This document shows, one piece after another, positions 17,265-37,996 of a stretch of DNA of 39,561 nucleotides (position 1 is the first letter of the stretch; each line of letters begins with the position of its first letter). This stretch comes from Candidatus Obscuribacterales bacterium (GTDB lineage: Bacteria > Cyanobacteriota > Vampirovibrionia > Obscuribacterales > Obscuribacteraceae): contig DATNRC010000349.1 in assembly GCA_036703705.1 (NCBI GenBank), positions 1 through 39,561 on the forward strand, given 5' to 3'. The notes under the pieces were generated by a model. That model searched no databases. It had not been told where the DNA came from and saw nothing but the letters and a program-made list of their open reading frames with translations. The position numbers and the translations under genes were made by a program.

Positions 17265-19613
17265 TTACTCCCAGTGTCGGAGAATCTTTTTCAATTCCTT
17301 TGCGAATTTGCCGAACCGGCCGCCGTGCTCCTTGCCTTCTGGCTTCCCGAATTGCACGTCGCACTTAGGCAAGGCGGCCTTCAAGGCATTCTGCTCATCC
17401 ATGGTCCAGCCATCCGAGCATAAAATGAGCGTTCTCAACTGGGTCATTTTCTCGAGGGTTGGACGCGATCCTGAGCCTCGAGGGGTACTTGTAAGATGAA
17501 GACGGGTCAAATTCTTCAATTTCGTGAGATGCGACAAGCCCCTATCTGTTACTTTTGGATTGTGTCCAAGATGTATGTCCACCAGCGACTGTTTTTGGCT
17601 TATGCGCTCGAGTCCTGCGTCATCCAACCCTGTGCCTTCAACAGAAATATGGGTGAGCTGTTTCATTCTCGCAAGTGCTTCGCAGATACCTGGAGTGATC
17701 GGAATCAGGTCGATATTTATGGCCGTCAGTCGGGGCAGTTTCGAAAGATAAGCTATACCGTGCTCAGTGATCTTTGGATTGTTGCGGATGTTCAAATTGT
17801 CCAGGGATGCGATTCGCGAGATGTGCTGGGCACTGGAGTCGTCTAGATCGGTATCTTCGAGAGAGAGAACGGACAGAGGCGCCTTTGCGAGCTTCGGAAG
17901 TACCAGATTGATTTCCGGTATGGCATCGGCTCTGAAGTGAATCATTTTCTCGAAATTAAGTTTGGCGAGGCCCTTTCCGGTGACGCGTGTGTTTGAAACC
18001 ATGAGCACTTTCAACGGACTGTGATCTATCAAATAACTGAGCCCCACGTCTGATGTCTTAGAATCCTGGACGTTAAGATAAGTCAGGCGGTCGAAATTGC
18101 GCACAAATGCCAAAGTCTCGTCTGATACTCGACTGATATCTGCCTGCTCTACGGCTTCCAGATAATCCTTCACCCTGTAGATGATGGTGACGGCGCGTAC
18201 CTCATCTTGCCTGAAACGATTTAGTTCACGAAGATGAGATTGGCAAAAGAGCGAGTCAAGAAATAGGCAGACTGGGATGTCTAGCTCTCTTCTTCCCACG
18301 GCGTCGACCGCTTTGTCAGGATCCGATGGCTCGGATCCGACGCGGAAGATTGATTTGCGAGCGACGTCCAATGGAAATACAAACTGGCGCCGTCTGCCCG
18401 CACCATCACCTTCCTTTGTCGAGAAGTATGAACGCTCGAAATTATACGTATCCGGCTTAGTAGTGATACTTTCGACAGGCGGAAGAACTGCCGGCGCTGG
18501 TTGAGATCCCTTGCCCACGAAGTAACCTGCAGTGGCGCCGAGTAACAAGAAGCCGATTGCACCGACGATCATGAAAGCGATGTTCGTCCGCCTTTCGGCG
18601 ACGGCGAGCGCGACTTGCTGTGCATCAATCTGAATGGTCTCCGGCTCGCGCTGCAACATCATGAGATCGTTGGCGAGCTCGAGAAAACTCTGATATCGTG
18701 CATCAGGATTTTTCTCCAGGCAGCGGCGAACGATTTTCTCCAGGGTTTCCGGGTACTCTCTTCCGAGCGACGCTTCTTTCAGACTTTGCGGCTGTTCTGA
18801 TTGGTGACGCATCATTGTCGCGAGCGCTGTCTCACCCGCAAATGGTGGTGCACCAGTCAGTGCCTCGAACATCACACAGCCAAATGAGTATATGTCCGAG
18901 CGGTGATCGACTTTCATGCCGGTGCACTGCTCGGGGCTCATGTAAAGCGGTGTTCCGAAGACCTCACCAGTCCTTGTAAGCGCTTCGCCACCCTCGCCCT
19001 CGATCATTTTCGCAATGCCAAAATCGACTACTTTGGCTGTGTATTCGCTGGTCACAGAATCAGTTTTCGTAAGAATAATGTTGCTCGGCTTTAGATCTCG
19101 ATGCACAACTCCCTGCTGGTGAGCGAAGGCCAGGCCAAAACATATCGGCGGGAACAAGCGCAACGCATCCTCGACGGAGATCGTTCCAATTTGTTTGAGA
19201 TATTGTGTAAGCGTCTTGCCCTCTACCAGATCCATGACGAAATATGGCAGTTGATTTTCAATCAATCCAAATTCGTGGGCCTTGACTAAATTTCGATGGT
19301 CTAGTTTGCTCGCTGCTCGTGCTTCTTTCTGGAATCGGCGTATTGCAATCTCCGGCAATTGGACCGTGGTGAGAATCTTGAGAGCGAATTGCTTTTTTAG
19401 AAAGATTTGCTCGACTTTGTAGACGGTGCCCATCCCCCCGTGCCCGATCAGGGACAAAACTTTATATCGATCGCCGATTATGTAACCTTCCGGAAGGGCT
19501 GCGTGCCTGGCAAGGAGCGAGATGAACGATCCCTGTGGCGAGCTTTCATCCGAAAGTTCGCCATTGTCGCCGCAGAGCCCAGTCTTCTCACGTTCGCGAT
19601 CGTCGGCCGGCAT
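17265..19613 (-). CDS. Ser/Thr protein kinase with TM segment and C-terminal leucine-rich repeats
   Basis: IGHGGMGTVYKV, FALKIL, HRDLKPSNIIL, DFGIAK, GTPLYMSPEQ. TM helix IAFMIVGAIGFLLLGATAGYFVG. C-terminal ~24-aa LRR units (L..L.L....ITD.GL..L). Confidence 0.95.
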   Translation of the reverse strand: MPADDREREKTGLCGDNGELSDESSPQGSFISLLARHAALPEGYIIGDRYKVLSLIGHGGMGTVYKVEQIFLKKQFALKILTTVQLPEIAIRRFQKEARAASKLDHRNLVKAHEFGLIENQLPYFVMDLVEGKTLTQYLKQIGTISVEDALRLFPPICFGLAFAHQQGVVHRDLKPSNIILTKTDSVTSEYTAKVVDFGIAKMIEGEGGEALTRTGEVFGTPLYMSPEQCTGMKVDHRSDIYSFGCVMFEALTGAPPFAGETALATMMRHQSEQPQSLKEASLGREYPETLEKIVRRCLEKNPDARYQSFLELANDLMMLQREPETIQIDAQQVALAVAERRTNIAFMIVGAIGFLLLGATAGYFVGKGSQPAPAVLPPVESITTKPDTYNFERSYFSTKEGDGAGRRRQFVFPLDVARKSIFRVGSEPSDPDKAVDAVGRRELDIPVCLFLDSLFCQSHLRELNRFRQDEVRAVTIIYRVKDYLEAVEQADISRVSDETLAFVRNFDRLTYLNVQDSKTSDVGLSYLIDHSPLKVLMVSNTRVTGKGLAKLNFEKMIHFRADAIPEINLVLPKLAKAPLSVLSLEDTDLDDSSAQHISRIASLDNLNIRNNPKITEHGIAYLSKLPRLTAINIDLIPITPGICEALARMKQLTHISVEGTGLDDAGLERISQKQSLVDIHLGHNPKVTDRGLSHLTKLKNLTRLHLTSTPRGSGSRPTLEKMTQLRTLILCSDGWTMDEQNALKAALPKCDVQFGKPEGKEHGGRFGKFAKELKKILRHWE

Positions 19614-21920: not shown

Positions 21921-22129
21921 GCGAGCGCGAAGTGACTTTGGCTGTTTTCCTGATTTAATGTTGGACTACGTAATTCTCCCACTGACATCGTAAAAATACG
22001 GTGGTTAAATTGGCGCACAACTAAAGCCCCTCTTCTCCCCTACCCTTCTCTACATAAATCCCTTTACTATGCCGAGATTTGCTCTCGCGCTGGTGTAGTT
22101 CGCTCGCCAGGCGCGGGAAAGGACGGCCT

Positions 22130-24244
22130 ATGTCGCTAACGAAAGATTGCGGCGATGCTGCCGCTTCTGATTCTGCGTCCACGCGCAGTCTCACTAAAGA
22201 GGACGTGCTCTCATATCACAAAGAAGCGAACAGCCTTCTTTGTAAAAACCAAGAGGACGAAAAGACCAAACAGCTGCTTCCAGGACTGATTCTGGAAGAC
22301 AGCGAGAAGCAGCCGGCCGGAGCGCCCGCGGATAATGCCACCTCCCTTGGTGCAGAGGTTCTTGTGGACAAGACGCAGCAGTTTGGCTCTGCTCTTAAAG
22401 ACCGGATTGTGCCTGACCCAGAGCTGGGAACCAGAGCAGTCGCAGCTTTGAATGAAATCGCAGATAATCCCAGTTTGCTGCGGCGCATCTCCCAGGACGG
22501 CGTGTCAATTTCGCGCAAAGATTTGCAGACCGCATTGGTGCTGGATTCCCGGGTAAGAGCAAAGGACGGCCCGGCACCATACGGTCCCGATCATCTTCTA
22601 ACTGACAATGAAACAAAAGCTGTTAAGTATTTGCACGATAATTGGAGCAACATAGTCGGGCGCGAAGGACGGAGTATTGATGTCAAACAATTCAGTTCTG
22701 ACTTACTAAACCGCAATAGCGATTATTCAGTGGTTGAAGCGATCAAAAACGTCGCTAAAGGCGCTCCAATAGATGATGTCGCCTCTGCTGTCAAAAATCT
22801 GGATCCAGCGACAAAAGCCAGACTGTCTGATCTCGTCGCTCAGAACGTAAAGGAGACGTCAAGCAACAAGGAGCAGGAGTCGGTTTATTCTGACCGCATC
22901 AACAAGCTCGATCCCAGCCAAGTCAAAGAAGTCAGCGACGAGCTTTTCGATCGCATAGATAAGGACAAAGATGGGCATCTGAGCAAAAGCGAGCTGGGAC
23001 AAGCAATGGAAGACCAGCAGTTTACCGGACAGGAAGCACAGGTCGTCGCTGCCCTCCACAAAAACCGAGAGGCTCTGGAAGAGTTGAGTGACGACGAATG
23101 GTTCGATGAAAACGACGGCATTACCAGGAAAGATCTGCAAAAATTTGACGAGATGGAGGCTGATAGAAGCAAGCGCACGGATGCCGTCTATGACGGGGAA
23201 GATTGGACCGACAAGCGTTTCAAATCCTTTGATAAGAACGGCGACGGACTCTTGTCTTCGGATGAGGTGGACAACGCTTTGAAGCAAAAGGACGGTTTGA
23301 CCGATCAAGACAAGCGGATACTTGCGCACCTCAAGGAAAAGTACAACGAGATCAAGAACGAATCTAACGACCAGATTTTTGCTGAATCTTCTATCAGCCA
23401 GAAGGACATCAAAGAATACACCGCGAAGTGGATGAGAGACGGAGACGTAGCCAAGCTGGTAGGCGACGTGGACTGGAATATGTACAGAACCAGTCAAAAT
23501 CAAGTCGACGGTTACAGCAAAGAACTGTTTGCCAATAAAGAAGATCCAGTCAAGAGTGTCACCCCAGATGCCATCAAACAGGGAACCATAGGAGATTGCT
23601 ATCTCGAGTCTTCGCTGGCAGCGGTGGCCAATCAAGATCCCGAGTCGATTGTCAAAATGATCAAGGACAATGGGGATGGCACCTACACGGTGACATTCCC
23701 GGGCGATCCCAAACATCCGGTCACCGTGAAGGCACCAACTGAGGCCGAAATGGGACTCTACAATTACGGCAGCAAGGACGGAGCCTGGGCCTGCGTAATG
23801 GAGAAGGCCTATGGCAAATATCTGCAGCAGTACAAAGGACACGGCGGCGCCACTCCAGCCGAGGGAGCCGATGGTGGTGGATACGCTGAAGATCCGCTCG
23901 AGCTTCTGACGGCAAAAAACTACAGCCGTAAAGACATTAGCGATATGTCACAAAAGCAATTAGTCAAAGAGCTGACAGATGCTTTTGCGGAAGGCAACGA
24001 AGAACCAATAGAGGCCAGCGTCTCCGGCGACAAGGGGAAGGGCAAGGGAGGGACAAGCGTTGATGGCTTCCCAACTCATCACTCATATACTGTCGTCGGC
24101 TTCAAGCCTGATGGCAATGGTGGTGGCACAGTCATCATCCGCAATCCTTGGGGCGGCGCAGATGGCACTACAAGTGGTACCATTGAAATGCCGTTAGATA
24201 AATTCGTAAGGAATTTCTCGGAACTCACCTATTTCAAAGACTGA
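22130..24244 (+). CDS. calpain-like cysteine protease (peptidase C2) with N-terminal EF-hand modules
   Basis: Catalytic blocks QGTIGDCYLESSLAAVA (Cys), THHSYTVVGF (His), IIRNPWG (Asn). Canonical EF loops DKDKDGHLSKSE and DKNGDGLLSSDE. Start taken at ATG 22130. Confidence 0.88.
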   Translation: MSLTKDCGDAAASDSASTRSLTKEDVLSYHKEANSLLCKNQEDEKTKQLLPGLILEDSEKQPAGAPADNATSLGAEVLVDKTQQFGSALKDRIVPDPELGTRAVAALNEIADNPSLLRRISQDGVSISRKDLQTALVLDSRVRAKDGPAPYGPDHLLTDNETKAVKYLHDNWSNIVGREGRSIDVKQFSSDLLNRNSDYSVVEAIKNVAKGAPIDDVASAVKNLDPATKARLSDLVAQNVKETSSNKEQESVYSDRINKLDPSQVKEVSDELFDRIDKDKDGHLSKSELGQAMEDQQFTGQEAQVVAALHKNREALEELSDDEWFDENDGITRKDLQKFDEMEADRSKRTDAVYDGEDWTDKRFKSFDKNGDGLLSSDEVDNALKQKDGLTDQDKRILAHLKEKYNEIKNESNDQIFAESSISQKDIKEYTAKWMRDGDVAKLVGDVDWNMYRTSQNQVDGYSKELFANKEDPVKSVTPDAIKQGTIGDCYLESSLAAVANQDPESIVKMIKDNGDGTYTVTFPGDPKHPVTVKAPTEAEMGLYNYGSKDGAWACVMEKAYGKYLQQYKGHGGATPAEGADGGGYAEDPLELLTAKNYSRKDISDMSQKQLVKELTDAFAEGNEEPIEASVSGDKGKGKGGTSVDGFPTHHSYTVVGFKPDGNGGGTVIIRNPWGGADGTTSGTIEMPLDKFVRNFSELTYFKD

Positions 24245-25477: not shown

Positions 25478-26578
25478 ATGGCCGTGCGGCGTAATTTGAG
25501 CATTGGATTCCTGTCGGTTTGTGTGGCTGGTTCTGTTTTTCTGTTTGCGCCTTCCACGAGCACAGCTCAGGGCGCGATGCCGAATGTTTCTATGGTGACC
25601 TTACAGGTGGTTCCCGGACCGCAAGGACAGGACTGCGTGGTGACGCCGAAAGGCATGGTGGTTCCGTTGCCTGGAGCGGGTGTTGACGGCAATACCGTTC
25701 AGATCTTCATGGGCGCCCAAGGTGGATATTGGTACATCGACAAGAATGGTCAGCCGGTTGATTTGACTGCTGCCGTCAAACAGTTTCAATCCGCGACTGC
25801 AAAAGCTTCGGAGGTGCCGCAGTACGCACCCGTGCCCAGCCAAACCACATCTTCAGGTGCCGCTGCAGCGACTGCCGCTGCTGCTGGATTGGGAGCCATG
25901 GCTGGTGCTGCTATGACGAATGCGTATTACAACAACGTTCCCTACGGAACGCCGATGTATTATCCGCGAACAGGCAACCCATATTATGTGAATGCGAGCG
26001 GCAATGCCGTATATGTGCAACCGAACAACTCAGTCAACTACAGCACTTACAATGCTGTGCATGCAGAGAATCTCCAGAAGCAGGAAGACTGGTATTCCAG
26101 TCACAAAAACAAAAACACAGATCAATTCAAGAAGTGGAAGAAGAACAGCGATGACAACCCATTCGTAGCCGCCAATAGCGCTCGCTTCGCTGGTGATGGT
26201 GATGCGGACGGCCAAAGAAGATTCGGGAGGCGAGGCGGCGGAGATGCCTTAGGCAGCGATGGCGGGGGGAGATTCGGAAGGCGAGGCGGCGGAGATGCCT
26301 CAGGCAGCGATGGCGGAGGGAGATTCGGAAGGCGAGGCGGCGGAGATGCCTCAAGCAGGGATGGCGGGGGGAGATTCGGAAGGCGAGGCGGCGAAGATGC
26401 CTCAAGCAGCGATGGCGGAGGCAGGCTGGGACGCCGAGGTGGGGAGGATGGTGATAAGGCCGGCGGCAGACTGGGTGGTCGCCGGAATACCGGCGGCGGC
26501 GCACTTCAACAGGCTGGAGACGGCGCTGGCTTGCGGGATGGGGGTGACTCGCCTCGCGGAGGCTTAAGGCGCCGATAG
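25478..26578 (+). CDS. secreted protein with C-terminal RGG/GD tandem repeats
   Basis: Signal peptide MAVRRNLSIGFLSVCVAGSVFLFAPSTSTAQG. C-terminal RFGRRGGGDA.GSDGGG repeated. Confidence 0.85.
   Translation: MAVRRNLSIGFLSVCVAGSVFLFAPSTSTAQGAMPNVSMVTLQVVPGPQGQDCVVTPKGMVVPLPGAGVDGNTVQIFMGAQGGYWYIDKNGQPVDLTAAVKQFQSATAKASEVPQYAPVPSQTTSSGAAAATAAAAGLGAMAGAAMTNAYYNNVPYGTPMYYPRTGNPYYVNASGNAVYVQPNNSVNYSTYNAVHAENLQKQEDWYSSHKNKNTDQFKKWKKNSDDNPFVAANSARFAGDGDADGQRRFGRRGGGDALGSDGGGRFGRRGGGDASGSDGGGRFGRRGGGDASSRDGGGRFGRRGGEDASSSDGGGRLGRRGGEDGDKAGGRLGGRRNTGGGALQQAGDGAGLRDGGDSPRGGLRRR
26219..26480. repeat. 51-nt in-frame tandem repeat, 4 good copies plus degenerate ones
   Basis: agattcgg[g/a]aggcgaggcggcg[g/a]agatgcct.aggcagcgatggcgg.gg starts at 26219, 26270, 26321 and 26372. 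Confidence 0.9.
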
Positions 26579-26620: not shown

Positions 26621-27718
26621 ATGAGCCTGTCGACGATTGCGGTGTTATTCAGCGGCGACAATTCTGCAGTGGCCGTCTACTTGCTGCTGATATTGGCGTG
26701 TTTGGTTGCCGTTTTCCTGATATTGAGGAATAGGCCGCAAGATGCGCGCCGCTACCTCTTTGCTGAGGTGATATATGGAACCGTAGCTGGAGCATTGCCT
26801 TTTGCGCTTGCGCACGACTTCTTCGAAATCATTCAATTGCTTGCGTACGGGTGCTTCCTGGGTGGAGTAGCCTTTCTCATCATTTGCGGCTGCCTGGCAC
26901 GGAAGAAGCTCAAAATGATGGCAAGCATGTTTTTTGCCATCGCATGGGTGGTCTCTGTGGTTGGCATTGATGCATTTCTTCTGGAGCCTACAGCCCTCGA
27001 ACTAACTCATTTCACCATCAAGAATGACAAACTGTCCAAGCCCTTGAAAATCGCTGTTGCGGCGGACTTGCAAACGGACAATATTGGCGCCTACGAGCGA
27101 GGCGCCCTAAAGAAGATCATGGATGAAAAACCAGACCTGATTCTTCTTGCCGGGGACTATCTGCAAGTCTGGTCATATGATGAACTGAACGACCAAACCA
27201 AGAAGCTGAAGCAAGCATTGAAGGACACCGGATTTGGTGCGCCATTGGGCGTATATGCGGTTATGGGAAACGTTGAAGATGCATCATGGCCGACGCTTTT
27301 CAGTGATCTGAAAGGTAAATGCTTCGAGAAGACCGAGTCGATTGCTGTAGGCGAAGTTACGCTCACCGGACTTGGATTCAACGATTCTTTTAACGATCAG
27401 CTCAAGATTGCGCCCAGTCGGAGAATGCATATTGTGTTTGGACATGGTCCGGATTTCAGCCTGAGCAGGTTCGACGCCGATCTTTTGATTGCCGGGCACA
27501 CTCATGGTGGACAAGTGCAAATACCAGGAATAGGACCGATTTTTACCTTTTCAAAGGTGCCAAGGGCATGGGCCCAAGGCGGCCTTATCCAAATGGATGA
27601 TGGACGTACGCTCATTATCTCCAGGGGCATCGGATTGGAAAGGCACCATGCTCCACGGCTGCGCTTTCTCTGTCGTCCTCAGATCGTAATTGTTGATGTA
27701 CTGCCTGACAAGAAATGA
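26621..27718 (+). CDS. membrane-anchored metallophosphoesterase
   Basis: N-terminal TM helices, then calcineurin-like motifs: KIAVAADLQTD, LAGDY, MGNVED, GHTHGGQ. Confidence 0.9.
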   Translation: MSLSTIAVLFSGDNSAVAVYLLLILACLVAVFLILRNRPQDARRYLFAEVIYGTVAGALPFALAHDFFEIIQLLAYGCFLGGVAFLIICGCLARKKLKMMASMFFAIAWVVSVVGIDAFLLEPTALELTHFTIKNDKLSKPLKIAVAADLQTDNIGAYERGALKKIMDEKPDLILLAGDYLQVWSYDELNDQTKKLKQALKDTGFGAPLGVYAVMGNVEDASWPTLFSDLKGKCFEKTESIAVGEVTLTGLGFNDSFNDQLKIAPSRRMHIVFGHGPDFSLSRFDADLLIAGHTHGGQVQIPGIGPIFTFSKVPRAWAQGGLIQMDDGRTLIISRGIGLERHHAPRLRFLCRPQIVIVDVLPDKK

Positions 27719-27719
27719 T

Positions 27720-28265
27720 TCAGCTCGACAATCGGCGCGCGAGAATTGCATAAGTCAGCCCGTTCCATTCAAACTCATCGACAGCCTTCATGCCCACCTT
27801 CTTGTGTGCCGCGAGCGATCTGCTGTTGACCTGAGATACGAGAGTCGCGGCCAGCCTGTAGCCTTTCGGAACAAGGTCGGGCAGATAGGCGTACAGTTTT
27901 TCGAAAATCCCCTGTCCTCTGCTTGGAGCTGCAATACAGACCGGTCCGCAAATACAGACAATACTTGTGTCAATCGTGCTGCCTTCAAATTGGACCTACT
28001 TCAATTTCTCGACCATTGTTCCAGACAACGAAAAGCGGCGATTGAATTCAGCTGAGGTCACGCAGAGAAATCCAAGCACTGAGCCATTTCCAGCTGCCAC
28101 AATGGTGCCAATGTCCTTATCGATCTCTTCCAGCTGCTCTGCGTTGAAGTAAGCTGATAGAAAACCGTCTTGCTTTTGCTCGGCTGTCAAATTGGAAGAC
28201 AGATTTTCAATTTCCAGAGTAACTATTTTCTCGAAATCACTCTCAGTCGCTCTTCGTATAATCAT
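27720..28265 (-). pseudogene. GNAT family N-acetyltransferase interrupted by one in-frame TAG (27995..27993)
   Basis: ORF 27996-28265 ends ..SGTMVEKLK-TAG. The same frame continues VQFEGSTIDTSIVCICGPVCIAAPSRGQGIFEKLYAYLPDLVPKGYRLAATLVSQVNSRSLAAHKKVGMKAVDEFEWNGLTYAILARRLSS to TGA at 27720. The R/Q-x-x-G-x-G/A acetyl-CoA motif (SRGQGI) lies after the stop. Confidence 0.75.
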
Positions 28266-28328
28266 GCAGATTGAAAACTGTTTTGTTTCGATGTGTCCAA
28301 TATCAGTAACAATACCATGACCATGGTG

Positions 28329-28370
28329 AATGCCAATGCCAATGCCAATGGGAATGCCGATGCCAATGCG
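28329..28370. repeat. imperfect hexanucleotide array (AATGCC)7
   Basis: AATGCC AATGCC AATGCC AATGGG AATGCC GATGCC AATGCG, lying 64-105 nt upstream of the GNAT start. Confidence 0.9.
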
Positions 28371-28528
28371 ACCAGAACTCGCTCAGGCTGAGTATCGAAT
28401 TAAGCCGAGAGGTGAGAATTGTGACCCGGGCAGGAACTCTTGTTGGCAGTTGCACGTCTTTCCGCAGCCGGAGGGAAGCCTCTGACCACCTGGCAGCAAC
28501 ATTGAAAAGCGGCGTGCACGGGGAGGTA

Positions 28529-28744
28529 ATGTTGATGAATTGGGACTGGCAGCCGATACCAGACGTCATTTCATACGATGCTTTGCTTAACGAGCTGAGA
28601 CGCCGGCCGAATGTTCGTTCTTCGGATGACGAGCAAGCTTATCTCTTTGAGCTGATTTATGACCTGATGCTTTTGGATAAGCGAGTAAAGACTCAGGCCG
28701 TAAATTCGTACTGGGTCAACAATACGAGCTACGACACCGAGTGA
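28529..28744 (+). CDS. small hypothetical protein (71 aa), convergent with the retron RT
   Basis: ATG 28529 preceded by GGGGAGG at optimal spacing. MLMNWDWQPIPDVISYDALLNELRRRPNVRSSDDEQAYLFELIYDLMLLDKRVKTQAVNSYWVNNTSYDTE. The upstream part of track ORF 28412-28744 is R/S-rich and unlikely to be coding. Confidence 0.5.
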   Translation: MLMNWDWQPIPDVISYDALLNELRRRPNVRSSDDEQAYLFELIYDLMLLDKRVKTQAVNSYWVNNTSYDTE

Positions 28745-28762
28745 GCGGCACACCGATGCACT

Positions 28763-29734
28763 CTATTGCCAAGCTTCCTGCAGCTTCGCGAGCATTGCTT
28801 TGTATTTGGGAAGCGATGGATCGTCAGGCCGCACCATCTCTAGGAAGGAGATCTGACCCTGGAGTTGTTGTGCTTTGTCTCGATACTGCTCAGGTTCTAG
28901 TGAGGCTCGGTGCAGAGCCGCCCGCAAATTACGGCGGCGTGTCCGAGACAGATTGGGGAATTGGTTTACTACCAGACCCGTGACCATTTGCCTGCCGAGT
29001 TTTGTTACCAGTCGCACTTTGCGATTGTTGAGCCTGAAACCTTCGCTTTCGATGATAGATGTGATCTTAGCTTTGACTTCCTTGTGGCTGCCATATCCCG
29101 AAACCGAAATGTCATCACAATATCTGGTGCAGGTCCAGCCGCTCGACGCGCACAAATTGTGGAGCTTGTGATCGAGCGGGCGGCAAATGAGATTTGCCAG
29201 CAGCGGTGAGCTAGGCGCTCCCTGAGGCAAGGTGCCCCTGCACGTTGTGAGCCTGGACAAGGCTTTGGCGATAGCTGGACTGTAGCCCAATCCAATGAAG
29301 ACGTTTAGGACTCGCGCTTCGTCAATGGTGCCGAAAAAGTTTTCGATATCGACATTGAGAACGAAATCTTTGTTCGCGTGCGGAGACGCATTGTCAACGA
29401 TCGAACAGCCGCGTTTGTAACCTGTGGCAATGAAATGAAACGGCACCGCACTCAAAATGTTTTTGGAGATCCAGCGTTGCACAGCTTTCAAATTCTTATT
29501 TGGCGCTGTGATCAAACGGGAGCCGCCGCTTTTCTTTTGCAGGAAAAATCGTCTGTAAAAACGCTCTGTATGAAGTGCATAACGCCAGAGCTCAATTTCG
29601 GGAATGCCAGTCTCTAAAGCTAATTCGCCCAGGCTGTTGAAAGGCAAGTCGTTTACTCCTCGGAGCGGCATTTCTGCCATTGAACCAATCAAAGAGAGCG
29701 GAATTGCAGACGTGCTGCAGGGCAGCACATGCAA
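28763..29734 (-). CDS. ret: retron-type reverse transcriptase
   Basis: KKSGGSRLITAP, GCSIVDNASPHANKDFVLNVDIENFF (NAxxH), LPQGAPSSPLLANLICRPLD, TRYCDDISVSG (YxDD), RQMVTGLVVN (VTG). About 320 aa with no maturase or endonuclease domains. TTG 29734 has GGAG 7 nt upstream. Alternative ATG starts at 29680 and 29671. Confidence 0.9.
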   Translation of the reverse strand: MHVLPCSTSAIPLSLIGSMAEMPLRGVNDLPFNSLGELALETGIPEIELWRYALHTERFYRRFFLQKKSGGSRLITAPNKNLKAVQRWISKNILSAVPFHFIATGYKRGCSIVDNASPHANKDFVLNVDIENFFGTIDEARVLNVFIGLGYSPAIAKALSRLTTCRGTLPQGAPSSPLLANLICRPLDHKLHNLCASSGWTCTRYCDDISVSGYGSHKEVKAKITSIIESEGFRLNNRKVRLVTKLGRQMVTGLVVNQFPNLSRTRRRNLRAALHRASLEPEQYRDKAQQLQGQISFLEMVRPDDPSLPKYKAMLAKLQEAWQ

Positions 29735-29903
29735 ATCCGGGCTCCAGGTGAAACCTTGAATTAGGATTGACGAAGCATCAATCTAAACCGCGCAAGCGGT
29801 CCAGAAATGCCACCTACCCGAGTAGTGAGCTGCATCTCCTATGAGCAGCTGAAGGCACATTTAAAAGCACGCGGAAGTGAAAGTCAATCGATTTTGCATG
29901 CCT
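29725..29903 (-). ncRNA. candidate retron msr-msd non-coding RNA
   Basis: Inverted-repeat arms at 29890-29901 and 29727-29737 (CATGCAAA/TTTGCATG perfect, ~11 bp with one bulge and a G-U), 152 nt apart. They enclose four hairpins: 29828-29850, 29811-29827, 29785-29802 and 29765-29783. Lies directly 5' of the RT on the same strand. Confidence 0.45.
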
Positions 29904-29962
29904 TAGAGAAATATTGGACACTGGCTATCCATCAGCTATCCCGTGGAGGCAAACCATATCTG

Positions 29963-32191
29963 CTATGTATTGCGTCTTGTAAGCAGCGCATGCAAATCAT
30001 GTTTGTTGACCAGTATGTCTTTCCAGAGATCGCCTCTTTGGGCCAGTCTTTGCGGCATAACGGATAGCGTAAGATCGGACGGTCGTATATTCGATAGCTC
30101 ATTCCATGAGAGCGGGGCAGAAACCGGCGCACCAGGAAATGCACGAGGAGTATATACAGCTGCCATTGTCTTACCCGTGCCGTTGGATGAGCAGTCGACA
30201 TATACTTTGCCTGCGCGTCTGGATATATCGAACTCTATGGTTGCTTTGTCTGGATGATGTCCTGTGATTAGTTGCGCCGTCGTTTGCGCAAGGGTGCGCG
30301 TTGTGAGGAAGTCCACCTCTCGATCGCGCTTGACGGGAACAAAGATATGCAATCCGTTTCGTCCGGAAGTCTTCAAATACGATTGCAATCCAGCAGCCGC
30401 CAGACTCTCTCTGAGGATGGACGCCACGTCGCACACCCTCTTAAAGGCATCCATGTCAATAACATCAGGAACTTTCTTGCCCGACTGCGGGTGATAGTCG
30501 AGATCCACTATTAAGAAGTCCGGGAGGTCCAACATCCCTTCGACGTCGTCGATGGTGCCGGCGGGAGGATCGGGATATTCTGCCAGGCGCGATGAACAAA
30601 CGTGAAACTCGAGCACGCTGTGCTGAGCGAGAAACATAAGAGTAGCAAGGTTGTTGCACAGCAAATATTCACTGCGCGCCTCGCCGCTCTCTATGATTTG
30701 TGTCTCCACAAAATCTGGCAGTGCTGCATTCCAATTCTTCTGGAAGAAACTTTTACCCTTTATTCCGTCAGGATATCGGATGACCGTCAGCGGGCGACCG
30801 TACCAGTGTGGTAGCAAATATGGTGCAATCTTGCATAGATGACGCAGATAATCTCTTTTTGTAAGGGCTGGAAATTCTTCGGTTTCGGGCCAAAATTCTT
30901 TATCCAGGTGAGAAAGAGGGATCTGCTCATTTTCGACGAATAACTCCAGCTTCTTCTCATTGCCGCTCAGCTGCCCGATCACCTTTTCATAAACGCTCGC
31001 ACCATCTCCTTCTAATCTGTCCTGAGGACGATCGAGTCCGGAGGTATTTCGTGTTGGGATGGGGGTGGCGTCACGGCTGCTGCTCTCGGCTACCCGAGAC
31101 ACCGTTTCTGGTGCTGCAGCGTATGTGGTGCCACTGATAAGGGCTTTCTGCGAATCAGGATGCAATACTTCGGCGGGTTCTTTGTCCTCGCGAAAGCGCA
31201 TAAAAACTGGAGTACGAAGATGGCCGTCTTTTGTGAGGTCCATGTATTTGACTTCGACTATCACTTCCGGTTTTACCCAAATTACATCCTTCTTGTCTTC
31301 CGGGCGCGATACGAACGGACAAGCCTTTGTCTTGAGAGGCTCAATCTTGTTGAGCGTTTCCTTTAAGAGTCGCTGGTCAAATCCGGTTCCTACACTGCCG
31401 CAATAGACCATGCGGCCCGCTGTGTCGTTGTAGCCGAGCAAAAGCGAACCGAACGTCGAGTTTCGCGAGCCCTGACCGAGCGTATAGCCGCCGATGATAA
31501 ACTCTGCAGTTTGCTGGGCTTTCACTTTCAGCCATGACGGTGAGCGCTTTCCACACTCATACATGGAATCGACCCGTTTAGCGACAATGCCCTCGAAGCC
31601 GTTGTCGACACATACTTCGTAGGCAAGCGCAGGGTCAACGTCGAAGAAGGAAAGCAAACGAACCGTTTCCGACGGAATGATTGCTTGCTCCAGCACTTTC
31701 TTGCGCTCAAGAAGCCGGACATTGGTTAGATCAAAACCATCGAAATATGCGACATCAAACACATAGTATTGAACGGGTACCAGTTTGTCGGCGCGCGCAA
31801 TGTCAGCTTGCTTTGTCAGATTCATGCGTTGCTGCAACTGCTGAAATGACGGCCGTCCCTGGGCATCAACAGCGATTATTTCGCCATCCAAAACGGCATC
31901 ACATTTGACGAGTCGGGAAAGTTCGCTGGCAATAGAAGGATATTGGGAAGTCAGGTTCAATGCCCTGCGCGACAACAATGAGACTGTGCCGTCACGTATA
32001 ACTGCAATGCAACGAATGCCATCGAGTTTCGGCTCGAAAACCCATCCTGCGTGCCGGATTGTTCCCCGTGGGAGACTTGCCAGCATGGGACTGACAGTTT
32101 TTGGAGGCGGTCTGCGGTGAGCACCACCGACGGTGCCCAATTCCAATCGTTGTTCTCTTGTTTTGCCGCGGGTTGCTCGCCCTTTAGCCAA
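29963..32191 (-). CDS. ligD: ATP-dependent DNA ligase LigD (ligase + primase-polymerase domains)
   Basis: Adenylation motif FEPKLDGIRC, DGEIIAVD. OB region FIIGGYT..FGSLLLGY. C-terminal Pol block RYPDGIKGKSFFQKN, LIVDLDY, SGRNGLHIFVPV, VYVDCSSNG. No phosphoesterase domain evident. Confidence 0.95.
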   Translation of the reverse strand: MAKGRATRGKTREQRLELGTVGGAHRRPPPKTVSPMLASLPRGTIRHAGWVFEPKLDGIRCIAVIRDGTVSLLSRRALNLTSQYPSIASELSRLVKCDAVLDGEIIAVDAQGRPSFQQLQQRMNLTKQADIARADKLVPVQYYVFDVAYFDGFDLTNVRLLERKKVLEQAIIPSETVRLLSFFDVDPALAYEVCVDNGFEGIVAKRVDSMYECGKRSPSWLKVKAQQTAEFIIGGYTLGQGSRNSTFGSLLLGYNDTAGRMVYCGSVGTGFDQRLLKETLNKIEPLKTKACPFVSRPEDKKDVIWVKPEVIVEVKYMDLTKDGHLRTPVFMRFREDKEPAEVLHPDSQKALISGTTYAAAPETVSRVAESSSRDATPIPTRNTSGLDRPQDRLEGDGASVYEKVIGQLSGNEKKLELFVENEQIPLSHLDKEFWPETEEFPALTKRDYLRHLCKIAPYLLPHWYGRPLTVIRYPDGIKGKSFFQKNWNAALPDFVETQIIESGEARSEYLLCNNLATLMFLAQHSVLEFHVCSSRLAEYPDPPAGTIDDVEGMLDLPDFLIVDLDYHPQSGKKVPDVIDMDAFKRVCDVASILRESLAAAGLQSYLKTSGRNGLHIFVPVKRDREVDFLTTRTLAQTTAQLITGHHPDKATIEFDISRRAGKVYVDCSSNGTGKTMAAVYTPRAFPGAPVSAPLSWNELSNIRPSDLTLSVMPQRLAQRGDLWKDILVNKHDLHALLTRRNT

Positions 32192-32199
32192 CTGTCAGC

Positions 32200-33048
32200 T
32201 CACCCCACTGCGGCTTTCTTCTTGCCTTTTGACGCTGGGGCGGTTGCAGCCGACTCTCTCGTCTTTTCTCTGGATTTTTTTGCTTTTACGTTTTCCATGC
32301 TTGCCTGCAATGCTTCCATCAAATCGATCACCTTGCCCGTCTGAATTGGGGGAGCCTCGGCAATTTCCCGTCCTTCCAGCTTGGCCTCGATTATTTTCAG
32401 AACTGCCTCGCGATAGTTATCAGTATAATCGCTCGGCTGGAATTCTTGCGTCATCAAGTCAATCAGGCTGCCGGCCATGGCTAATTCTTTGTCTGTGATG
32501 TTGACGTCGGGAAGCGCTTTTCTCTTCTCCACGCGTATTTCATCCGGGTAGAAGAGCGTGCTCATCATCAAGGTGCCATCAAGAGGACGCAAGGCGCACA
32601 GGCGTTCTTTGCTGCGAATGGCGACCTTGGCAATTGCCGTCATTCCTTTGTCCTGCAAAGCGCGCATAAAAAGCGCGAAGGGCTTTCGGGCTGCCTCATC
32701 AGGCTCGATGAAATAACTCTTTTCATAGAAAACAGGATCAATCTCAGACTGCTGTATGAAGCTGGTTATCTCGATGCAATCTTTGTTTGGCAATGGGAGC
32801 TTTTCCAGGTCATCCTTGCTCACAATCACATACTGCCCTTTGGCGTATTCATAACCCTTCTCAATTTCCTCGCTCTCAATCTTTCGATCGCAAACGGGAC
32901 ACGTTTTGATCTCCTTGATGCGGCTCTTGCAGTCCTTGTGAAGCTGGTTGAAAGAGATATCTTTATTCTCAGTAGCTGTGTACAGCTTTACTGGAATGCT
33001 GACCATTCCAAACGTGATGATGCCTGTCCAAATTGCTCGCGGTGCCAT
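32200..33048 (-). CDS. ku: Ku protein (NHEJ DNA end-binding)
   Basis: Start moved to ATG 33048 (GGAGGAG SD). MAPRAIWTGIITFGMVSIPVKLYTA is the typical bacterial Ku N-terminus. Basic C-terminal tail. 8 nt upstream of ligD. Confidence 0.95.
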   Translation of the reverse strand: MAPRAIWTGIITFGMVSIPVKLYTATENKDISFNQLHKDCKSRIKEIKTCPVCDRKIESEEIEKGYEYAKGQYVIVSKDDLEKLPLPNKDCIEITSFIQQSEIDPVFYEKSYFIEPDEAARKPFALFMRALQDKGMTAIAKVAIRSKERLCALRPLDGTLMMSTLFYPDEIRVEKRKALPDVNITDKELAMAGSLIDLMTQEFQPSDYTDNYREAVLKIIEAKLEGREIAEAPPIQTGKVIDLMEALQASMENVKAKKSREKTRESAATAPASKGKKKAAVG

Positions 33049-33224
33049 GATGCGCTCCTCCGCCGGGGCAAGGTGTTTGTATGAACGGCCAGTCTGTGGC
33101 GAATCATATTCTTCCCGATCTATATACATTTTCCATCGCATAGATATGTATGGTATTTGGCTTGATGGCTTAGATTGCCTGAGCGCGTGGAAAAAGTTGA
33201 GCAAAACCGGGGATTCTATCACTT

Positions 33225-34214
33225 ATGCCTCTCTCCCTTCGAGCAATTACAATCTCAAATGGTGCGGTGCAGTTGCGCCTTCCTTCTGATTGGCGCGAAA
33301 GCGATCGGTCTGATAAAGGTGTCCGCTACGATGCACCCGGCAAAAAACAATGGCTCAAAATCAACATCTTTGGGCCCGAAAAAGTAGCGTCCGCAAAGGA
33401 GCTTGAAGACTGGGTGCGGAAGAAGACATTGACCGCCCGCATCGTCCAAAAGATGGCGAACGACGCATTCCTATTCGATGCCGGAACAGCTCCGGATGAG
33501 ATTAACGCCGTGGCGATGACGAGAACCTATCTCATCGTCGCTGCTTTTCTGCCGAAAGAAAAGCTTGGCATGGCTTATCACTTCCTCTATTACGAGGACG
33601 TGAAACTGGCCAATGATTCGGAGGCGGTAGAAGCCAGAAAGGCGATTGACAGGGAGATTCGCACCTGCCGCGTTGAGCCGATTGCGCTTTCCCGGGCCGC
33701 TTCTATGAAATCAGGAAGCCCTGCAGCTGCTGCGCTAGCGCCGGTTGCGATGGTAATTGGATTGGGCGTGCTCGGTTATGGCGGGTATTGGCTGTATGAC
33801 TCCTTAACGCGAGTCCCCACCTGGGAGGAATCAACAGCGCGAGCGCAGCAAGCCATAGCTGCGGGCAATATGGCTGACGCAGAGAAGACAATGCGCGAGG
33901 CGCTCACTCGCGCGGAGGATAAGAACGATCAGCCACTCATTGCCCAGGGATCGCTGATGCTCGGCGATATCTATTCCAAGCAGGGAAAATTTGATAAGGC
34001 GCTGCCCATGTACGAAGTAGCCTTGCAGATTCAGGAAGACTCGCTCGGACGGTCAAACAAAACTGTGACGGCGACAGCTATGAAATTTGCCGATACACTG
34101 CGCAAAGTCGGGGACGGCAATCGCGCCGATCAAGTCTTGAAGTTGTATCAATCGACTATGGCGTCTGCGGCAAAGACGCAAAACGCGAAGAAATCGAAGC
34201 AAGCCCGCAAATGA
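33225..34214 (+). CDS. hypothetical membrane protein with C-terminal TPR-like repeats
   Basis: 329 aa. TM helix AAALAPVAMVIGLGVLGYGGYWLY. TPR-like GKFDKALPMYEVALQIQE. Confidence 0.75.
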   Translation: MPLSLRAITISNGAVQLRLPSDWRESDRSDKGVRYDAPGKKQWLKINIFGPEKVASAKELEDWVRKKTLTARIVQKMANDAFLFDAGTAPDEINAVAMTRTYLIVAAFLPKEKLGMAYHFLYYEDVKLANDSEAVEARKAIDREIRTCRVEPIALSRAASMKSGSPAAAALAPVAMVIGLGVLGYGGYWLYDSLTRVPTWEESTARAQQAIAAGNMADAEKTMREALTRAEDKNDQPLIAQGSLMLGDIYSKQGKFDKALPMYEVALQIQEDSLGRSNKTVTATAMKFADTLRKVGDGNRADQVLKLYQSTMASAAKTQNAKKSKQARK

Positions 34215-35190: not shown

Positions 35191-36984
35191 CTACTGAGCT
35201 GGACCCTGGGGCGCCACAGGATATGAAACAGGCGCAGGATACATTTGTGGTGTTGGATACGGTTGCACCCCGGGTTGCTGCGCCGGATGACCGGGCGGTG
35301 TTTGCAAAACATACGGCTGAGCCGGGTACATGCCCTGCCGGTTAATAGACTGTGGCTGTGCATAAGGCGCTGTATGGGGATGGCTTTGCGGAAAGCCAGG
35401 CTGTTGTGCATACTGTTGAGATGGATAAGCTTGTTGCGGAAATGGCTGAGCTGGATAAGGTAGCTGATGCTGGCCAGTATATTGCTGAGTTGAGAAACCC
35501 TGGACTGCTGACGCGGGCACCATATTAGGTGGCGGCACGGAATATTGCTGCTGCATGTGGGTGTTCGGGTATTGCTGGGGAGCCTGGTTTGCGTAATATT
35601 GCTGAGGCGCTTGGCTTGTGGGATATTGTTGCGACGCTTGGCTTGTGCAATATTGCTGGGGAGCCTGGTTTGCGTAATATTGCTGAGGTGCTTGGCTTGT
35701 GGGATATTGTTGCGACGTTTGTGCCTGCGGATATTGCTGAGCGGACGAATACTGATGAGCTTGTTGGGAACGCGGCGAATCTGGCGGCTGTGACTGATGC
35801 ACGTGAGACTGACCCAGCGGGGGCGCAAATGCCTCTGATGGCATCTGCCGGCCGAGTTGGCTAGCTTCTGTGCTGTGCAAACCTTCCTCCGCCGTCACGG
35901 GTGAGATAACCGGATACTGGTAGTACAATCGGGCGATTGTCGATTTGTCTCTTTTGGTCAAAGCATTCATTTGCCGCGCGGAACGTCCAAAGTACATGAT
36001 GTCGTTGACATTTCGCGAATGCCCGCTTATGCCCATGGCATGCCCCACTTCGTGGATGCACGTTCCCTTCACTTCTTCTTCATCGACTACGCCTTTGCCG
36101 TACCATGATGCGACAGTGCCAATCAAAATCTCAGCGCTGACGATTTTAGGTACGGGTTCATCTGACACTTCGCTCTGCAAGCGCGTAATACCGGCTTCGC
36201 CGCGTTCCCTGTTGTTTTCCATGATTGTTACCGGATCGCTCGTCCAGCGCACGCGCAGGTCAGCTTCAGAAGGATTTTCCACGAGCTTGTATCCCAACTT
36301 CCCACCCGAAGCCTTGTTCCAGGTGTCGAGTGCCTCAACAATGTATTGGCTGAACGAAGGCCTGTAGCCTTTCACTCCCCGACCGTCTTCAATGTGCACT
36401 TTGAGGGGAAATCGTTCTTGGGGCCAATGTCTCAAATCTTTCTCAGCGAGCAGATCATCCAGATAGTCAGGCGCATTGGGATCGTATTTTGCCATTTTCT
36501 CCTTGTCTGCTTGCAAATCGAGAAGCAGGTGTTCAGCTGATTTCCTCGCCCCAGCTGTTGGTGATTGGAGAAAACGATTTAGCCATGCGATCGCCTCATC
36601 AAATTTCCCTTGATCTTTGTAGCAAAGCGCAATTAGATATGGCAGATCTTTGCGACTTGGATCATAACGCAGTGCCAGTTCTGCTTCATAAACGGATTTC
36701 TCCGGATTGCCCAGATTGCGGTAGCAGTGCGCCAAGTAGCTGTGAATAATCCCGGAGTATGAACTACGATCGTACATCGCGGCACGTTCCATCAGCGCTT
36801 TCGCCTGTAAGTGCTTCTCACTGTCCATCAGCACTTTAGCTTGCGTCACCATCTGAAAGAGCATGTGCTCGGTTTGGTAGTCTCTTATCGGCCTTTGTCT
36901 GGCGTCAGCAGACGCGCATGAACTTACTGCCACTACCAGCAGTGACAATGTGAGGACTGAAAATGTGCGAAATATTGAACGCAT
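35191..36984 (-). CDS. TPR-containing metzincin-type zinc metalloprotease lipoprotein with Q/P/Y-rich tail
   Basis: Start moved to ATG 36984 (GGAGAG SD). MRSIFRTFSVLTLSLLVVAVSSC is lipobox-like. TPR region, then HEVGHAMGISGHS = HExxHxxGxxH. Last ~190 aa are Q/P/Y-rich. Confidence 0.85.
   Translation of the reverse strand: MRSIFRTFSVLTLSLLVVAVSSCASADARQRPIRDYQTEHMLFQMVTQAKVLMDSEKHLQAKALMERAAMYDRSSYSGIIHSYLAHCYRNLGNPEKSVYEAELALRYDPSRKDLPYLIALCYKDQGKFDEAIAWLNRFLQSPTAGARKSAEHLLLDLQADKEKMAKYDPNAPDYLDDLLAEKDLRHWPQERFPLKVHIEDGRGVKGYRPSFSQYIVEALDTWNKASGGKLGYKLVENPSEADLRVRWTSDPVTIMENNRERGEAGITRLQSEVSDEPVPKIVSAEILIGTVASWYGKGVVDEEEVKGTCIHEVGHAMGISGHSRNVNDIMYFGRSARQMNALTKRDKSTIARLYYQYPVISPVTAEEGLHSTEASQLGRQMPSEAFAPPLGQSHVHQSQPPDSPRSQQAHQYSSAQQYPQAQTSQQYPTSQAPQQYYANQAPQQYCTSQASQQYPTSQAPQQYYANQAPQQYPNTHMQQQYSVPPPNMVPASAVQGFSTQQYTGQHQLPYPAQPFPQQAYPSQQYAQQPGFPQSHPHTAPYAQPQSINRQGMYPAQPYVLQTPPGHPAQQPGVQPYPTPQMYPAPVSYPVAPQGPAQ
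35571..35733. repeat. 81-nt in-frame tandem repeat, 2 copies, in the Q/P-rich tail
   Basis: attgctggggagcctggtttgcgtaatattgctgagg.gcttggcttgtgggatattgttgcgacg recurs at 35571 and 35652. Encodes QQYPTSQAPQQYYANQAPQQY. Confidence 0.85.
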
Positions 36985-37099
36985 AATCTCTCCACTGATT
37001 ATTCCACCACGACATATTAGATAAACTTTGATAATTGCCTGGCGCCTCTCTTGGGCAAGAATGTGATACTCATATTGCAAGCTATTTCCAGGAGGATTC

Positions 37100-37996
37100 A
37101 TGCCTGACCTGCCAAAATCCGCAGCAAAGTGGATCGCTGTCGAATTCGAGACCGGCGCGCAAAATGAAGATTTGGCGAGCTGGCTCATTGTTCAATGCGG
37201 CGCAACCGGGTGTGAAGTTACTCCTTCAGAGAATGCTGCGAAGGTTAAAATCTCTGCTTCGTTTGATAAAACAGAGTTCTCGAAGGATGAGCTTGTGAAG
37301 TTGCGGGGAGCCTTCGAGGAATACGGGCTTGGTGAGTGCCTTCATTCATTGCGCATACAGGCGCGCGATACTGAGGATTGGCTCAGTAAGTGGAAGGAAG
37401 GGTTTGAGCCTTCTGATGTGAGCGACAGAATCACGATCTGCCCGTCATGGTGGAAACAACGTGAGCATGAACTGCCTGCAGGCAGAATGCTTCTATTCAT
37501 TGAGCCCGGCATGGCGTTTGGCACAGGATTGCATGCCACAACGCAATATTGTCTTTCCTGTATCGAAAAATTCCCTATAGGCCCGGATGTCTTGGACGTC
37601 GGCACGGGAAGCGGCATTCTTGCCATTGCCGCATGTCTCTTCAATCCAAGCGCGTCCATAACAGCAATCGATATCGATCCAGCCTCCATCGAGAATGCTC
37701 AGCTTAACTTTGAATTGAATGGTGTTGCGAATCGCGTTCATTTGCTCTTGGGTGAAATCGATAAGGTGCGCCATAAGCAATTCGACACGATTTTTTCGAA
37801 CATGACTTGTGAGGACATCATTGCGTTGTTGCCCGATTATGTACAAATGATTAAGAGTGGCGGCAGAATTGTTTGCGCCGGCATACTAAGCGAGAAGCTG
37901 GAGATGCTTCTTTCTGCCGTCGCTCCAACCAGACTGACAGTCGCTGATCAAGCGCTTACGGACATGTGGGCGGGGATTACTCTGGGCGCGCCCTAA
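37100..37996 (+). CDS. prmA: ribosomal protein L11 methyltransferase
   Basis: IEPGMAFGTGLHATT, LDVGTGSGILAIAA (SAM motif I). Typical PrmA length and layout. Confidence 0.9.
   Translation: MPDLPKSAAKWIAVEFETGAQNEDLASWLIVQCGATGCEVTPSENAAKVKISASFDKTEFSKDELVKLRGAFEEYGLGECLHSLRIQARDTEDWLSKWKEGFEPSDVSDRITICPSWWKQREHELPAGRMLLFIEPGMAFGTGLHATTQYCLSCIEKFPIGPDVLDVGTGSGILAIAACLFNPSASITAIDIDPASIENAQLNFELNGVANRVHLLLGEIDKVRHKQFDTIFSNMTCEDIIALLPDYVQMIKSGGRIVCAGILSEKLEMLLSAVAPTRLTVADQALTDMWAGITLGAP

Follow-up and report, generated by a model that had tools for sequence, protein, structure and literature searches.

Organization of the locus

The window analysed here comprises positions 1 to 39,561 (39,561 nt) of contig DATNRC010000349.1 from the genome assembly GCA_036703705.1 of a Candidatus Obscuribacterales bacterium. 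On its minus strand, the two genes of a bacterial non-homologous end-joining (NHEJ) system, ku and ligD, are followed by a retron cassette, which consists of a promoter-like element, a non-coding RNA (ncRNA) as well as a gene for a reverse transcriptase (RT). The block is composed of the following features:

32200-33048, minus strand: ku, 282 aa from the conserved start MAPRAIW at 33048 (the open reading frame, ORF, is open back to 33222)
29963-32191, minus strand: ligD, encoding ligase and OB domains, a linker and a primase-polymerase
29901-29914, minus strand: conserved upstream element, candidate operator, seen in spacer alignments of related loci
29858-29887, minus strand: promoter-like element, a conserved block in alignments of ligD-RT spacers
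29664-29814, minus strand: retron ncRNA (msr-msd) of 151 nt, delimited by folding and covariation
28763-29671, minus strand: retron RT of 302 aa, counted from the ATG at 29671 (ORF open from 29734)

The genes ku and ligD are separated by 8 nt. The distance from the ligD stop codon to the first possible RT start (TTG at 29734) is 228 nt; counted to the likely start (ATG at 29671 or 29680), the ligD-RT spacer is about 282-291 nt long. The true RT start is most likely ATG 29671 (MPLRGVN) or 29680, which places it within or next to the ncRNA's a2 arm. A generic promoter and terminator scan of positions 28200-30100 revealed no terminator after ligD or the RT gene. An earlier sequence-only reading of this stretch had placed all of its described features correctly, save that the RT start is revised here and that the gap between the RT gene and a downstream GNAT-like gene is 497 nt, not 498.

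The retron reverse transcriptase and the search for an effector

The PADLOC retron RT models match the window RT at 1e-84 to 1e-56. The best-matching models, RT_XIII, RT_II-A and RT_III-A, fall between 1e-84 and 1e-77 (6e-79 for RT_II-A), and the NCBIfam model retron_St85_RT scores 245.5 bits, just over its cutoff of 235. The translation displays the motifs NAxxH (NASPH), VTG and YxDD (YCDD), and the catalytic residues are invariant across 33 homologs. In close pairs, the ratio of nonsynonymous to synonymous substitution rates (dN/dS) is 0.03-0.25 for the RT and 0.04-0.14 for LigD; the RT is under purifying selection similar to that on ligD.

The nearest relatives are RTs of about 300 aa with 42-56% identity. 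In a collection with one genome per species, they come almost wholly from metagenome-assembled genomes (MAGs) of Candidatus Obscuribacterales. No relative above 41% identity was found on the plasmids or phages searched, which fits chromosomal, vertical inheritance.

To our knowledge, every characterised retron is a three-part system with a toxin-like effector as its third part. Effectors were sought with PADLOC and Pfam among 17 window proteins, namely the RT and 16 others: the products of all ORFs of at least 150 aa at about 17.3-39.3 kb, of the GNAT-like gene, and of a 110-aa ORF beside the RT gene. Three shadow ORFs within longer ORFs and a 298-aa prmA-like ORF (37100-37996) were left out of this set. 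Among the 16 proteins, PADLOC detected none of the effector modules catalogued for retron types I-XIII, such as ATPase+HNH/Toprim, NDT, PRTase, 2TM, protease, TIR, cold-shock, DUF3800, HEPN and SWIM modules, and its effector models gave no match there save for generic kinase-domain matches. These concern a Ser/Thr kinase with leucine-rich repeats (17265-19613, minus strand), located 9 kb away, which matches the PD-T4-6 models via its generic kinase domain only. An NDT-like (RcaT/STM3845) effector gave no PADLOC or Pfam match among the 17 proteins. The earlier description of this locus as a retron without a recognizable effector is upheld by these null results, combined with the positive RT profile and ncRNA structure.

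Conservation of the ku-ligD-ncRNA-RT block

The loci of the relatives, each 16 kb in length, were sorted by tblastn and ORF clustering into three contexts, designated groups A, B and R. Group A, with the order ku-ligD-spacer-RT, includes the window, L004, L008/L009, L015, L017/L018/L020, L026/L027, L165 and L166. One more contig, P0024, probably belongs to this group; its upstream gene, end-truncated at 758 aa, is a candidate ligD. The block of ku, ligD, ncRNA and RT thus occurs in at least eight deep lineages, almost all of them Obscuribacterales MAGs, with the cassette immediately downstream of ligD and in the same direction.

Between most group A lineages, pairwise identity is 0.41-0.51 for the RT, 0.43-0.51 for LigD and 0.62-0.72 for Ku; L015 is nearer to the L017/L018/L020 lineage (LigD, 0.60; Ku, 0.77). 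The linkage of ku-ligD with the RT gene must be old, since the identities of RT and LigD between lineages are so low. Neighbour-joining (NJ) trees of Ku, LigD and RT recover the same lineages. No other gene cluster holds its position on either side of the block across the deep lineages, and shared flanks are confined to close pairs or groups (L008/L009, L017/L018/L020 and L026/L027). In L015, a DUF900 hydrolase gene is inserted between ligD and the cassette, which still lies next door. A survey of the neighbours of RT homologs, proposed in the sequence-only reading, revealed that ku and ligD recur; the GNAT-like gene and a 71-aa ORF located near it do not. As judged from these sequence comparisons, the association of ku-ligD with the retron is old, mainly vertical and selectively maintained.

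The NHEJ proteins

The window Ku matches the Pfam family Ku (4.2e-53) and the NCBIfam model Ku_bact (302.7 bits against a cutoff of 150; E 2.2e-90), and is 65-75% identical to Ku of other ku-ligD-RT loci. LigD scores 463.3 bits with the NCBIfam model NHEJ_ligase_prk (cutoff 373.2) and contains the Pfam domains DNA_ligase_A_M, DNA_ligase_A_C and LigD_Prim-Pol (6.6e-72). Its sequence shows a KxDG motif (EPKLDG) as well as the polymerase-domain DxD. The window is accordingly predicted to encode a bacterial NHEJ system, made up of a Ku homodimer-type protein and a LigD with an ATP-dependent ligase and a primase-polymerase.

The 3'-phosphoesterase domain (LigD_N), found in many but not all LigD proteins, had no match in the LigD of the window or in that of L085. 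An additional LigD_N domain (6e-44) is present in the outgroup LigD of L088 (2606-5395). Thus, the Obscuribacterales LigD is made up of ligase and polymerase only, and the nearest outgroup LigD tested, that of L088, adds the phosphoesterase.

The ncRNA and its upstream elements

The ncRNA has the layout of a retron ncRNA, with a1 and a2 arms, a G that ends a1, a pair of msr hairpins, and an msd hairpin that varies. Its parts in the window are as follows:

29802-29814, minus strand: a1 arm
29801, minus strand: candidate branching G, next to a1
29787-29800, minus strand: msr hairpin 1
29765-29783, minus strand: msr hairpin 2
29677-29764, minus strand: msd region, with a hairpin at 29699-29740
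29664-29676, minus strand: a2 arm, containing the RT start codon ATG at 29671

A stretch of 161 nt folds at -72.8 kcal/mol (z = -6.1), and none of 200 shuffled sequences was as stable. In an alignment of 18 loci, 85% of the cells of the pairing scheme are paired, compared to 30-53% after a shift of the 3' partners by 1-3 columns. Compensatory change was recorded in 14 of 26 pairs in these loci, including 10 of the 13 a1/a2 pairs; the msd hairpin was unalignable across lineages and stands outside this count. RNAalifold independently recovers the same three helices. The ncRNA is under purifying selection, with its helices kept by compensatory change. The motif of msr hairpin 2 occurs only once in the window, against 0 matches expected by chance. 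A search of positions 27000-34000 against Rfam 15 with E up to 10 gave no ncRNA family and one spurious snoRNA match. Since retron ncRNAs are diverse, the missing Rfam match is no argument against a retron.

Alignment of the spacers of ten related loci revealed a series of invariant blocks: the promoter-like TTGACnTT..TTAGATc, followed by ..CTCTG-G-ACCGC-loop-GCGGT and then by GGTTGATGnTTCGTCAACC. Close to the RT start, a block ..TAGCAGAGnnGC.. is reverse-complementary to the sequence that immediately precedes GGACCGC. The a2 arm contains the RT start codon in four loci, namely the window, L026, L027 and L166; the RT start of the other lineages is found 60-110 nt further downstream. Because of this position within a2, the a1/a2 stem could occlude initiation of RT translation in the four former loci.

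The promoter-like element of the window reads TTGACT, an 18-nt spacer and TAAATG; the spacer is 17 nt if the -10 hexamer is TTAAAT. The block is kept in most ligD-RT spacers as well as in group B, and L008/L009 retain the TTGAC core only. A generic sigma-70 scan of the window did not flag it because its -10 is TAAATG. Its conservation and position are consistent with a role as promoter of the cassette. Further upstream, the element at 29901-29914 reads ATATTTCTCTAAGG, with the consensus ..ATTCTCTAA and the general form ATATAyC..N..(A/G)ATTCTCTAA. It was found in most ku-ligD-RT loci, is unrecognizable in L008/L009, and has a related form, TGTGAATGCGCTAA, in group B. The element precedes the -35-like hexamer by 20-70 nt in both retron groups and may be an operator for some regulator.

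Sister clades and the slot upstream of the cassette

Group B is a shallower paralogous clade in Obscuribacteraceae, in which the cassette is located after gcvPB (RT, 62-86% identical; gcvPB, 78-90%). Some of its members carry, directly upstream of the cassette, genes for a 695-aa HerA/mad8-like P-loop ATPase and a 250-aa protein (e.g. L005, 5495-7582, and L013, 6077-6832). The ATPase has a sub-threshold match to nSTAND3, and its partner is without a family. This couple could be an undescribed pair of retron effectors. Group R comprises loci from outside Obscuribacterales, namely from Hydrogenedentes, Fimbriimonadia and a metagenome. A PF28093/STM3845 gene (PADLOC NDT_II-A) lies directly upstream in this group, which is the classical type II-A arrangement; the order NDT_II-A gene, ncRNA, RT was found in L001, L003 and L028. 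With RcaT-like proteins as tblastn queries, no ku-ligD-RT locus gave a match.

The promoter-like block and msr hairpin 2 are common to groups A and B. A related hairpin occurs in the group R loci L003 and L023, with no match in the other loci of that group. The shared promoter block and hairpin indicate that the unit consists of promoter, ncRNA and RT, and that the slot upstream of it is filled differently in each clade. In group A, ligD occupies the slot taken in the sister RT clades by an NDT/RcaT-like toxin or a HerA-like ATPase. Retron cassettes have been reported to swap effector modules (Mestre 2020, PMC7736814), which fits this pattern.

The GNAT-like gene and other genes of the window

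Two features lie downstream of the RT gene:

28529-28744, plus strand: convergent ORF of 71 aa, between the RT gene and the GNAT-like gene
27720-28265, minus strand: GNAT-like frame of 181 codons, with an in-frame TAG at 27996-27998

GNAT toxins exist in toxin-antitoxin systems, and one proposal made from the sequence alone was that the GNAT-like gene is the retron effector or toxin, inactivated by the TAG, either on its own or with the 71-aa ORF. What speaks for it is proximity only, the gene lying 497 nt downstream of the RT gene on the same strand. The family match is sub-threshold: Pfam Acetyltransf_1 aligns across the TAG with 14.9 bits (cutoff 20.7; E 0.033), and the C-terminal half matches NCBIfam ArsN1b at 3e-4. 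Seven homologs are full-length and uninterrupted (179-191 aa, 36-59% identical), and all seven conserve the RGQG motif. The closest has Gln at the position of the TAG, so that the lesion is compatible with a single CAG-to-TAG change or with a read error. The TAG is a normal stop codon in this organism, since RT and ligD both end in TAG.

The two homolog contexts that were read (L168 and L169) contain no RT, Ku or LigD, and tblastn detected no homolog of the GNAT-like gene or of the 71-aa ORF in any other RT locus. The convergent 71/110-aa ORF, which separates the RT gene from the GNAT-like gene, belongs to no family (a FliT match with E 0.049 is noise) and has no homolog in related loci. The effector role proposed for the GNAT-like gene is therefore abandoned as extremely improbable; to judge from these comparisons, the gene is a bystander.

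Further unusual proteins are encoded in the window:

22079-24244, plus strand: calpain-like protease with EF-hand
25478-26578, plus strand: protein with repeated GGGRFGRRGGGDASxSDGG units
35191-37188, minus strand: matrixin protein with tetratricopeptide repeats and a long Q/P/Y-rich repeat tail

Possible relationship between the retron and NHEJ

The features described above suggest a three-part module of ku, ligD and a complete retron cassette that is functionally coupled to NHEJ, a reading we regard as evenly poised between right and wrong. That some functional coupling of whatever kind exists between the retron and NHEJ appears somewhat probable. Such a link had been one of the proposals of the sequence-only reading, and it is now favoured by the recurrence of the block, the congruent trees and the purifying selection. 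Read-through from ligD, which that proposal invoked, is not needed.

Several observations weigh against coupling. The case for it is one of conserved gene order, and Ku and LigD match the profiles of ordinary NHEJ proteins and carry no domain specific to retrons. As the cassette comes with a promoter-like element of its own, it need not be co-transcribed with ligD. The RTs of group A form a basal grade with short internal branches in the NJ tree, and no clearly supported clade. In a wider survey of 80 LigD loci from JGI metagenomes, none had an intact RT beside LigD, and a decayed remnant was found in L086 only. The RT is absent from all 78 of these loci that are more distant, which confines the association to one order. 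The other two, L085 and L086, belong to the Ku/LigD clade of group A. In L085, ku-ligD stands without a retron. L086 (7029-8700) keeps ku-ligD, the promoter block and an intact-looking ncRNA; its RT is frameshifted and reduced to the first ~100 codons, being cut off beside a TumE/HVO_A0114 toxin-antitoxin pair. This locus is a natural RT-loss variant. Conversely, the RT of L025 (7776-8879) groups with the group A RTs and is accompanied by the ncRNA, away from ku-ligD. The cassette can thus relocate to another chromosomal site (in L025 it adjoins prmA, and the same MAG also carries a group B retron, L022). Finally, four group B loci beside gcvPB (L010, L011, L014 and L022) are without either candidate effector, so the cassette can survive without an adjacent partner. 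The retron is an accessory, dispensable partner of ku-ligD, and Ku-LigD is not 'addictive' as a retron toxin would be.

Several of these observations are what would be expected if the neighbourhood were a historical accident, in which a self-sufficient ncRNA-RT cassette, with no effector or with one encoded in trans, was inserted downstream of ku-ligD in an ancestor, was passed on at that site and is unrelated to NHEJ. The conserved promoter-like element, the cassettes of the same family after gcvPB that sometimes lack a nearby candidate effector, the loss (L086, L085) or relocation (L025) of the RT with ku-ligD kept, and the absence of special features in Ku and LigD all agree with this explanation. 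However, every other adjacency in the 16-kb loci is gone, and that of ligD and RT is kept in at least eight lineages, even past an inserted gene. The synteny of group B is an unfair comparison here, since that group is much shallower. Moreover, each characterised retron type needs a partner encoded by a neighbouring gene (Mestre 2020, PMC7736814). We consider an accident possible but not probable. The corresponding proposal of the sequence-only reading, an orphan or decaying retron beside housekeeping genes, is accordingly disfavoured as far as neutral insertion is concerned and is rejected as regards decay. The lack of a recognizable effector and the evident decay in the relative L086 would suit a pseudogenised remnant; the RT ORF of the window, however, is intact with all catalytic motifs, dN/dS is 0.03-0.25, and the ncRNA helices are kept by compensatory changes, which leaves next to no likelihood for a decaying orphan.

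It is also conceivable that the locus is a classical abortive-infection retron, with Ku-LigD as a toxic effector that is kept inactive by the RT and its multicopy single-stranded DNA (msDNA), then freed when a phage perturbs the msDNA. Retron-Sen2 reportedly works in this manner, and ku-ligD occupies the same position as the NDT/RcaT-like toxin gene of the sister clade. Yet Ku-LigD is a widespread, non-toxic repair pair, and the inheritance of the block is vertical and chromosomal, not island-like. In addition, L086 and L085 keep intact ku-ligD without a working RT, a state in which a freed toxin would be lethal or counter-selected. We regard such a retron as very unlikely here. As L086 has lost the RT and kept ku-ligD intact, the module is unlikely to be a toxin-antitoxin pair.

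If the retron is functionally coupled to NHEJ, the RT would copy the msd into a small hairpin msDNA branched from G 29801. The RT-msDNA complex would then engage Ku and/or LigD, as other retron complexes engage a protein encoded by a neighbouring gene. Given that Ku binds the ends of DNA and that LigD extends and seals such ends, the simplest and most likely contact would be one in which the msDNA acts as a DNA-end-like ligand or substrate for Ku-LigD. This specific step is tentative and, taken by itself, rather doubtful. The contact might tune NHEJ, by titrating or recruiting Ku, or might enable the retron to report on end-joining, or to exploit it, when a phage attacks. In one version, which we hold to be unlikely in this exact form, msDNA would be a physical ligand or substrate of Ku-LigD, and the output of the retron would be DNA end-joining instead of a toxin. 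LigD would join multicopy hairpin msDNA onto the ends of incoming linear phage genomes or onto chromosomal breaks. Joined in this way, the msDNA would cap phage termini or corrupt them, or would patch double-strand breaks. Alternatively, msDNA might titrate Ku and thereby gate NHEJ. Either way, this would be a non-abortive retron coupled to repair.

A functional coupling would represent the first natural link of retron msDNA to double-strand-break repair, and a use of a retron that is inherited vertically and is apparently non-suicidal. Such a coupling would also provide a natural precedent for combining DNA made by a retron with enzymes of end-joining, a combination relevant to tools for genome editing. 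Should no functional coupling exist, the cassette persists for very long under purifying selection without an adjacent effector and would challenge the view of retrons as always tripartite. In both cases, the locus provides a compact cassette, ~1.2-1.25 kb long, in which a promoter-like element, ncRNA and RT are united, as well as a new ncRNA family, and group B adds a second candidate effector pair, the HerA-like ATPase with the 250-aa protein.

Comparison with known systems

The closest known systems are Retron-Sen2 and Retron-St85 of type II-A, which are composed of msr-msd, the NDT-like toxin RcaT and an RT. The window RT passes the retron_St85_RT model and matches RT_II-A, the ncRNA follows the same general plan (a1/a2 arms, msr hairpins, msd hairpin), and the nearest relatives from outside Obscuribacterales (L001, L003 and L028) carry NDT_II-A/PF28093 STM3845 in the slot of ligD. 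By its RT sequence and ncRNA plan, the window retron is thus St85/Sen2-related and type II-A-like, without the defining NDT effector. Work by Bobonis and co-workers in 2022 is said to have found that the Retron-Sen2 toxin is held by RT-msDNA and released when phage perturbs the msDNA. The window differs in having no NDT toxin, in having ku-ligD as the upstream partner, and in its vertical, chromosomal inheritance. In addition, the partner stays intact where the RT is lost (L086), which leaves no toxin-antitoxin logic of the Retron-Sen2/St85 kind.

A conceptual precedent for a retron tied to DNA-end-processing machinery is provided by Retron-Eco6/Ec48, which reportedly guards RecBCD (work of Millman and co-workers, 2020). 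In contrast to the window, the output of Ec48 is still a 2TM toxin, and its genes do not adjoin recBCD; here, the genes for end-processing are the only conserved neighbours.

The canonical ku-ligD operon of Mycobacterium, Pseudomonas and Bacillus likewise has adjacent, co-directional genes for Ku and a multidomain LigD, with ligase and primase-polymerase intact. The LigD of the window differs from those proteins in comprising ligase and polymerase only, with no phosphoesterase, and the retron cassette is a conserved third element of the block. In Mycobacterium smegmatis, Ku-LigD is reported to restrict a mycobacteriophage by error-prone joining of cos ends (PMC12848934, 2026). This activity makes a defence output of a Ku-LigD-linked retron plausible. 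Such joining might be biased if multicopy DNA ends were supplied. The link of that system, which involves no RT or msDNA, to the window would be one of analogy.

A ligase or NHEJ partner is not among the retron modules catalogued by Mestre (2020, PMC7736814), and neither ligase nor NHEJ is mentioned in the 2026 SPIRE retron survey. A full-text search of the literature found no paper tying a native retron to Ku or LigD. What sets the locus apart from the systems named above is a retron with the NHEJ pair as its conserved partner. This order of genes is solid, and it points to candidate mechanisms in which the retron would act with Ku-LigD.

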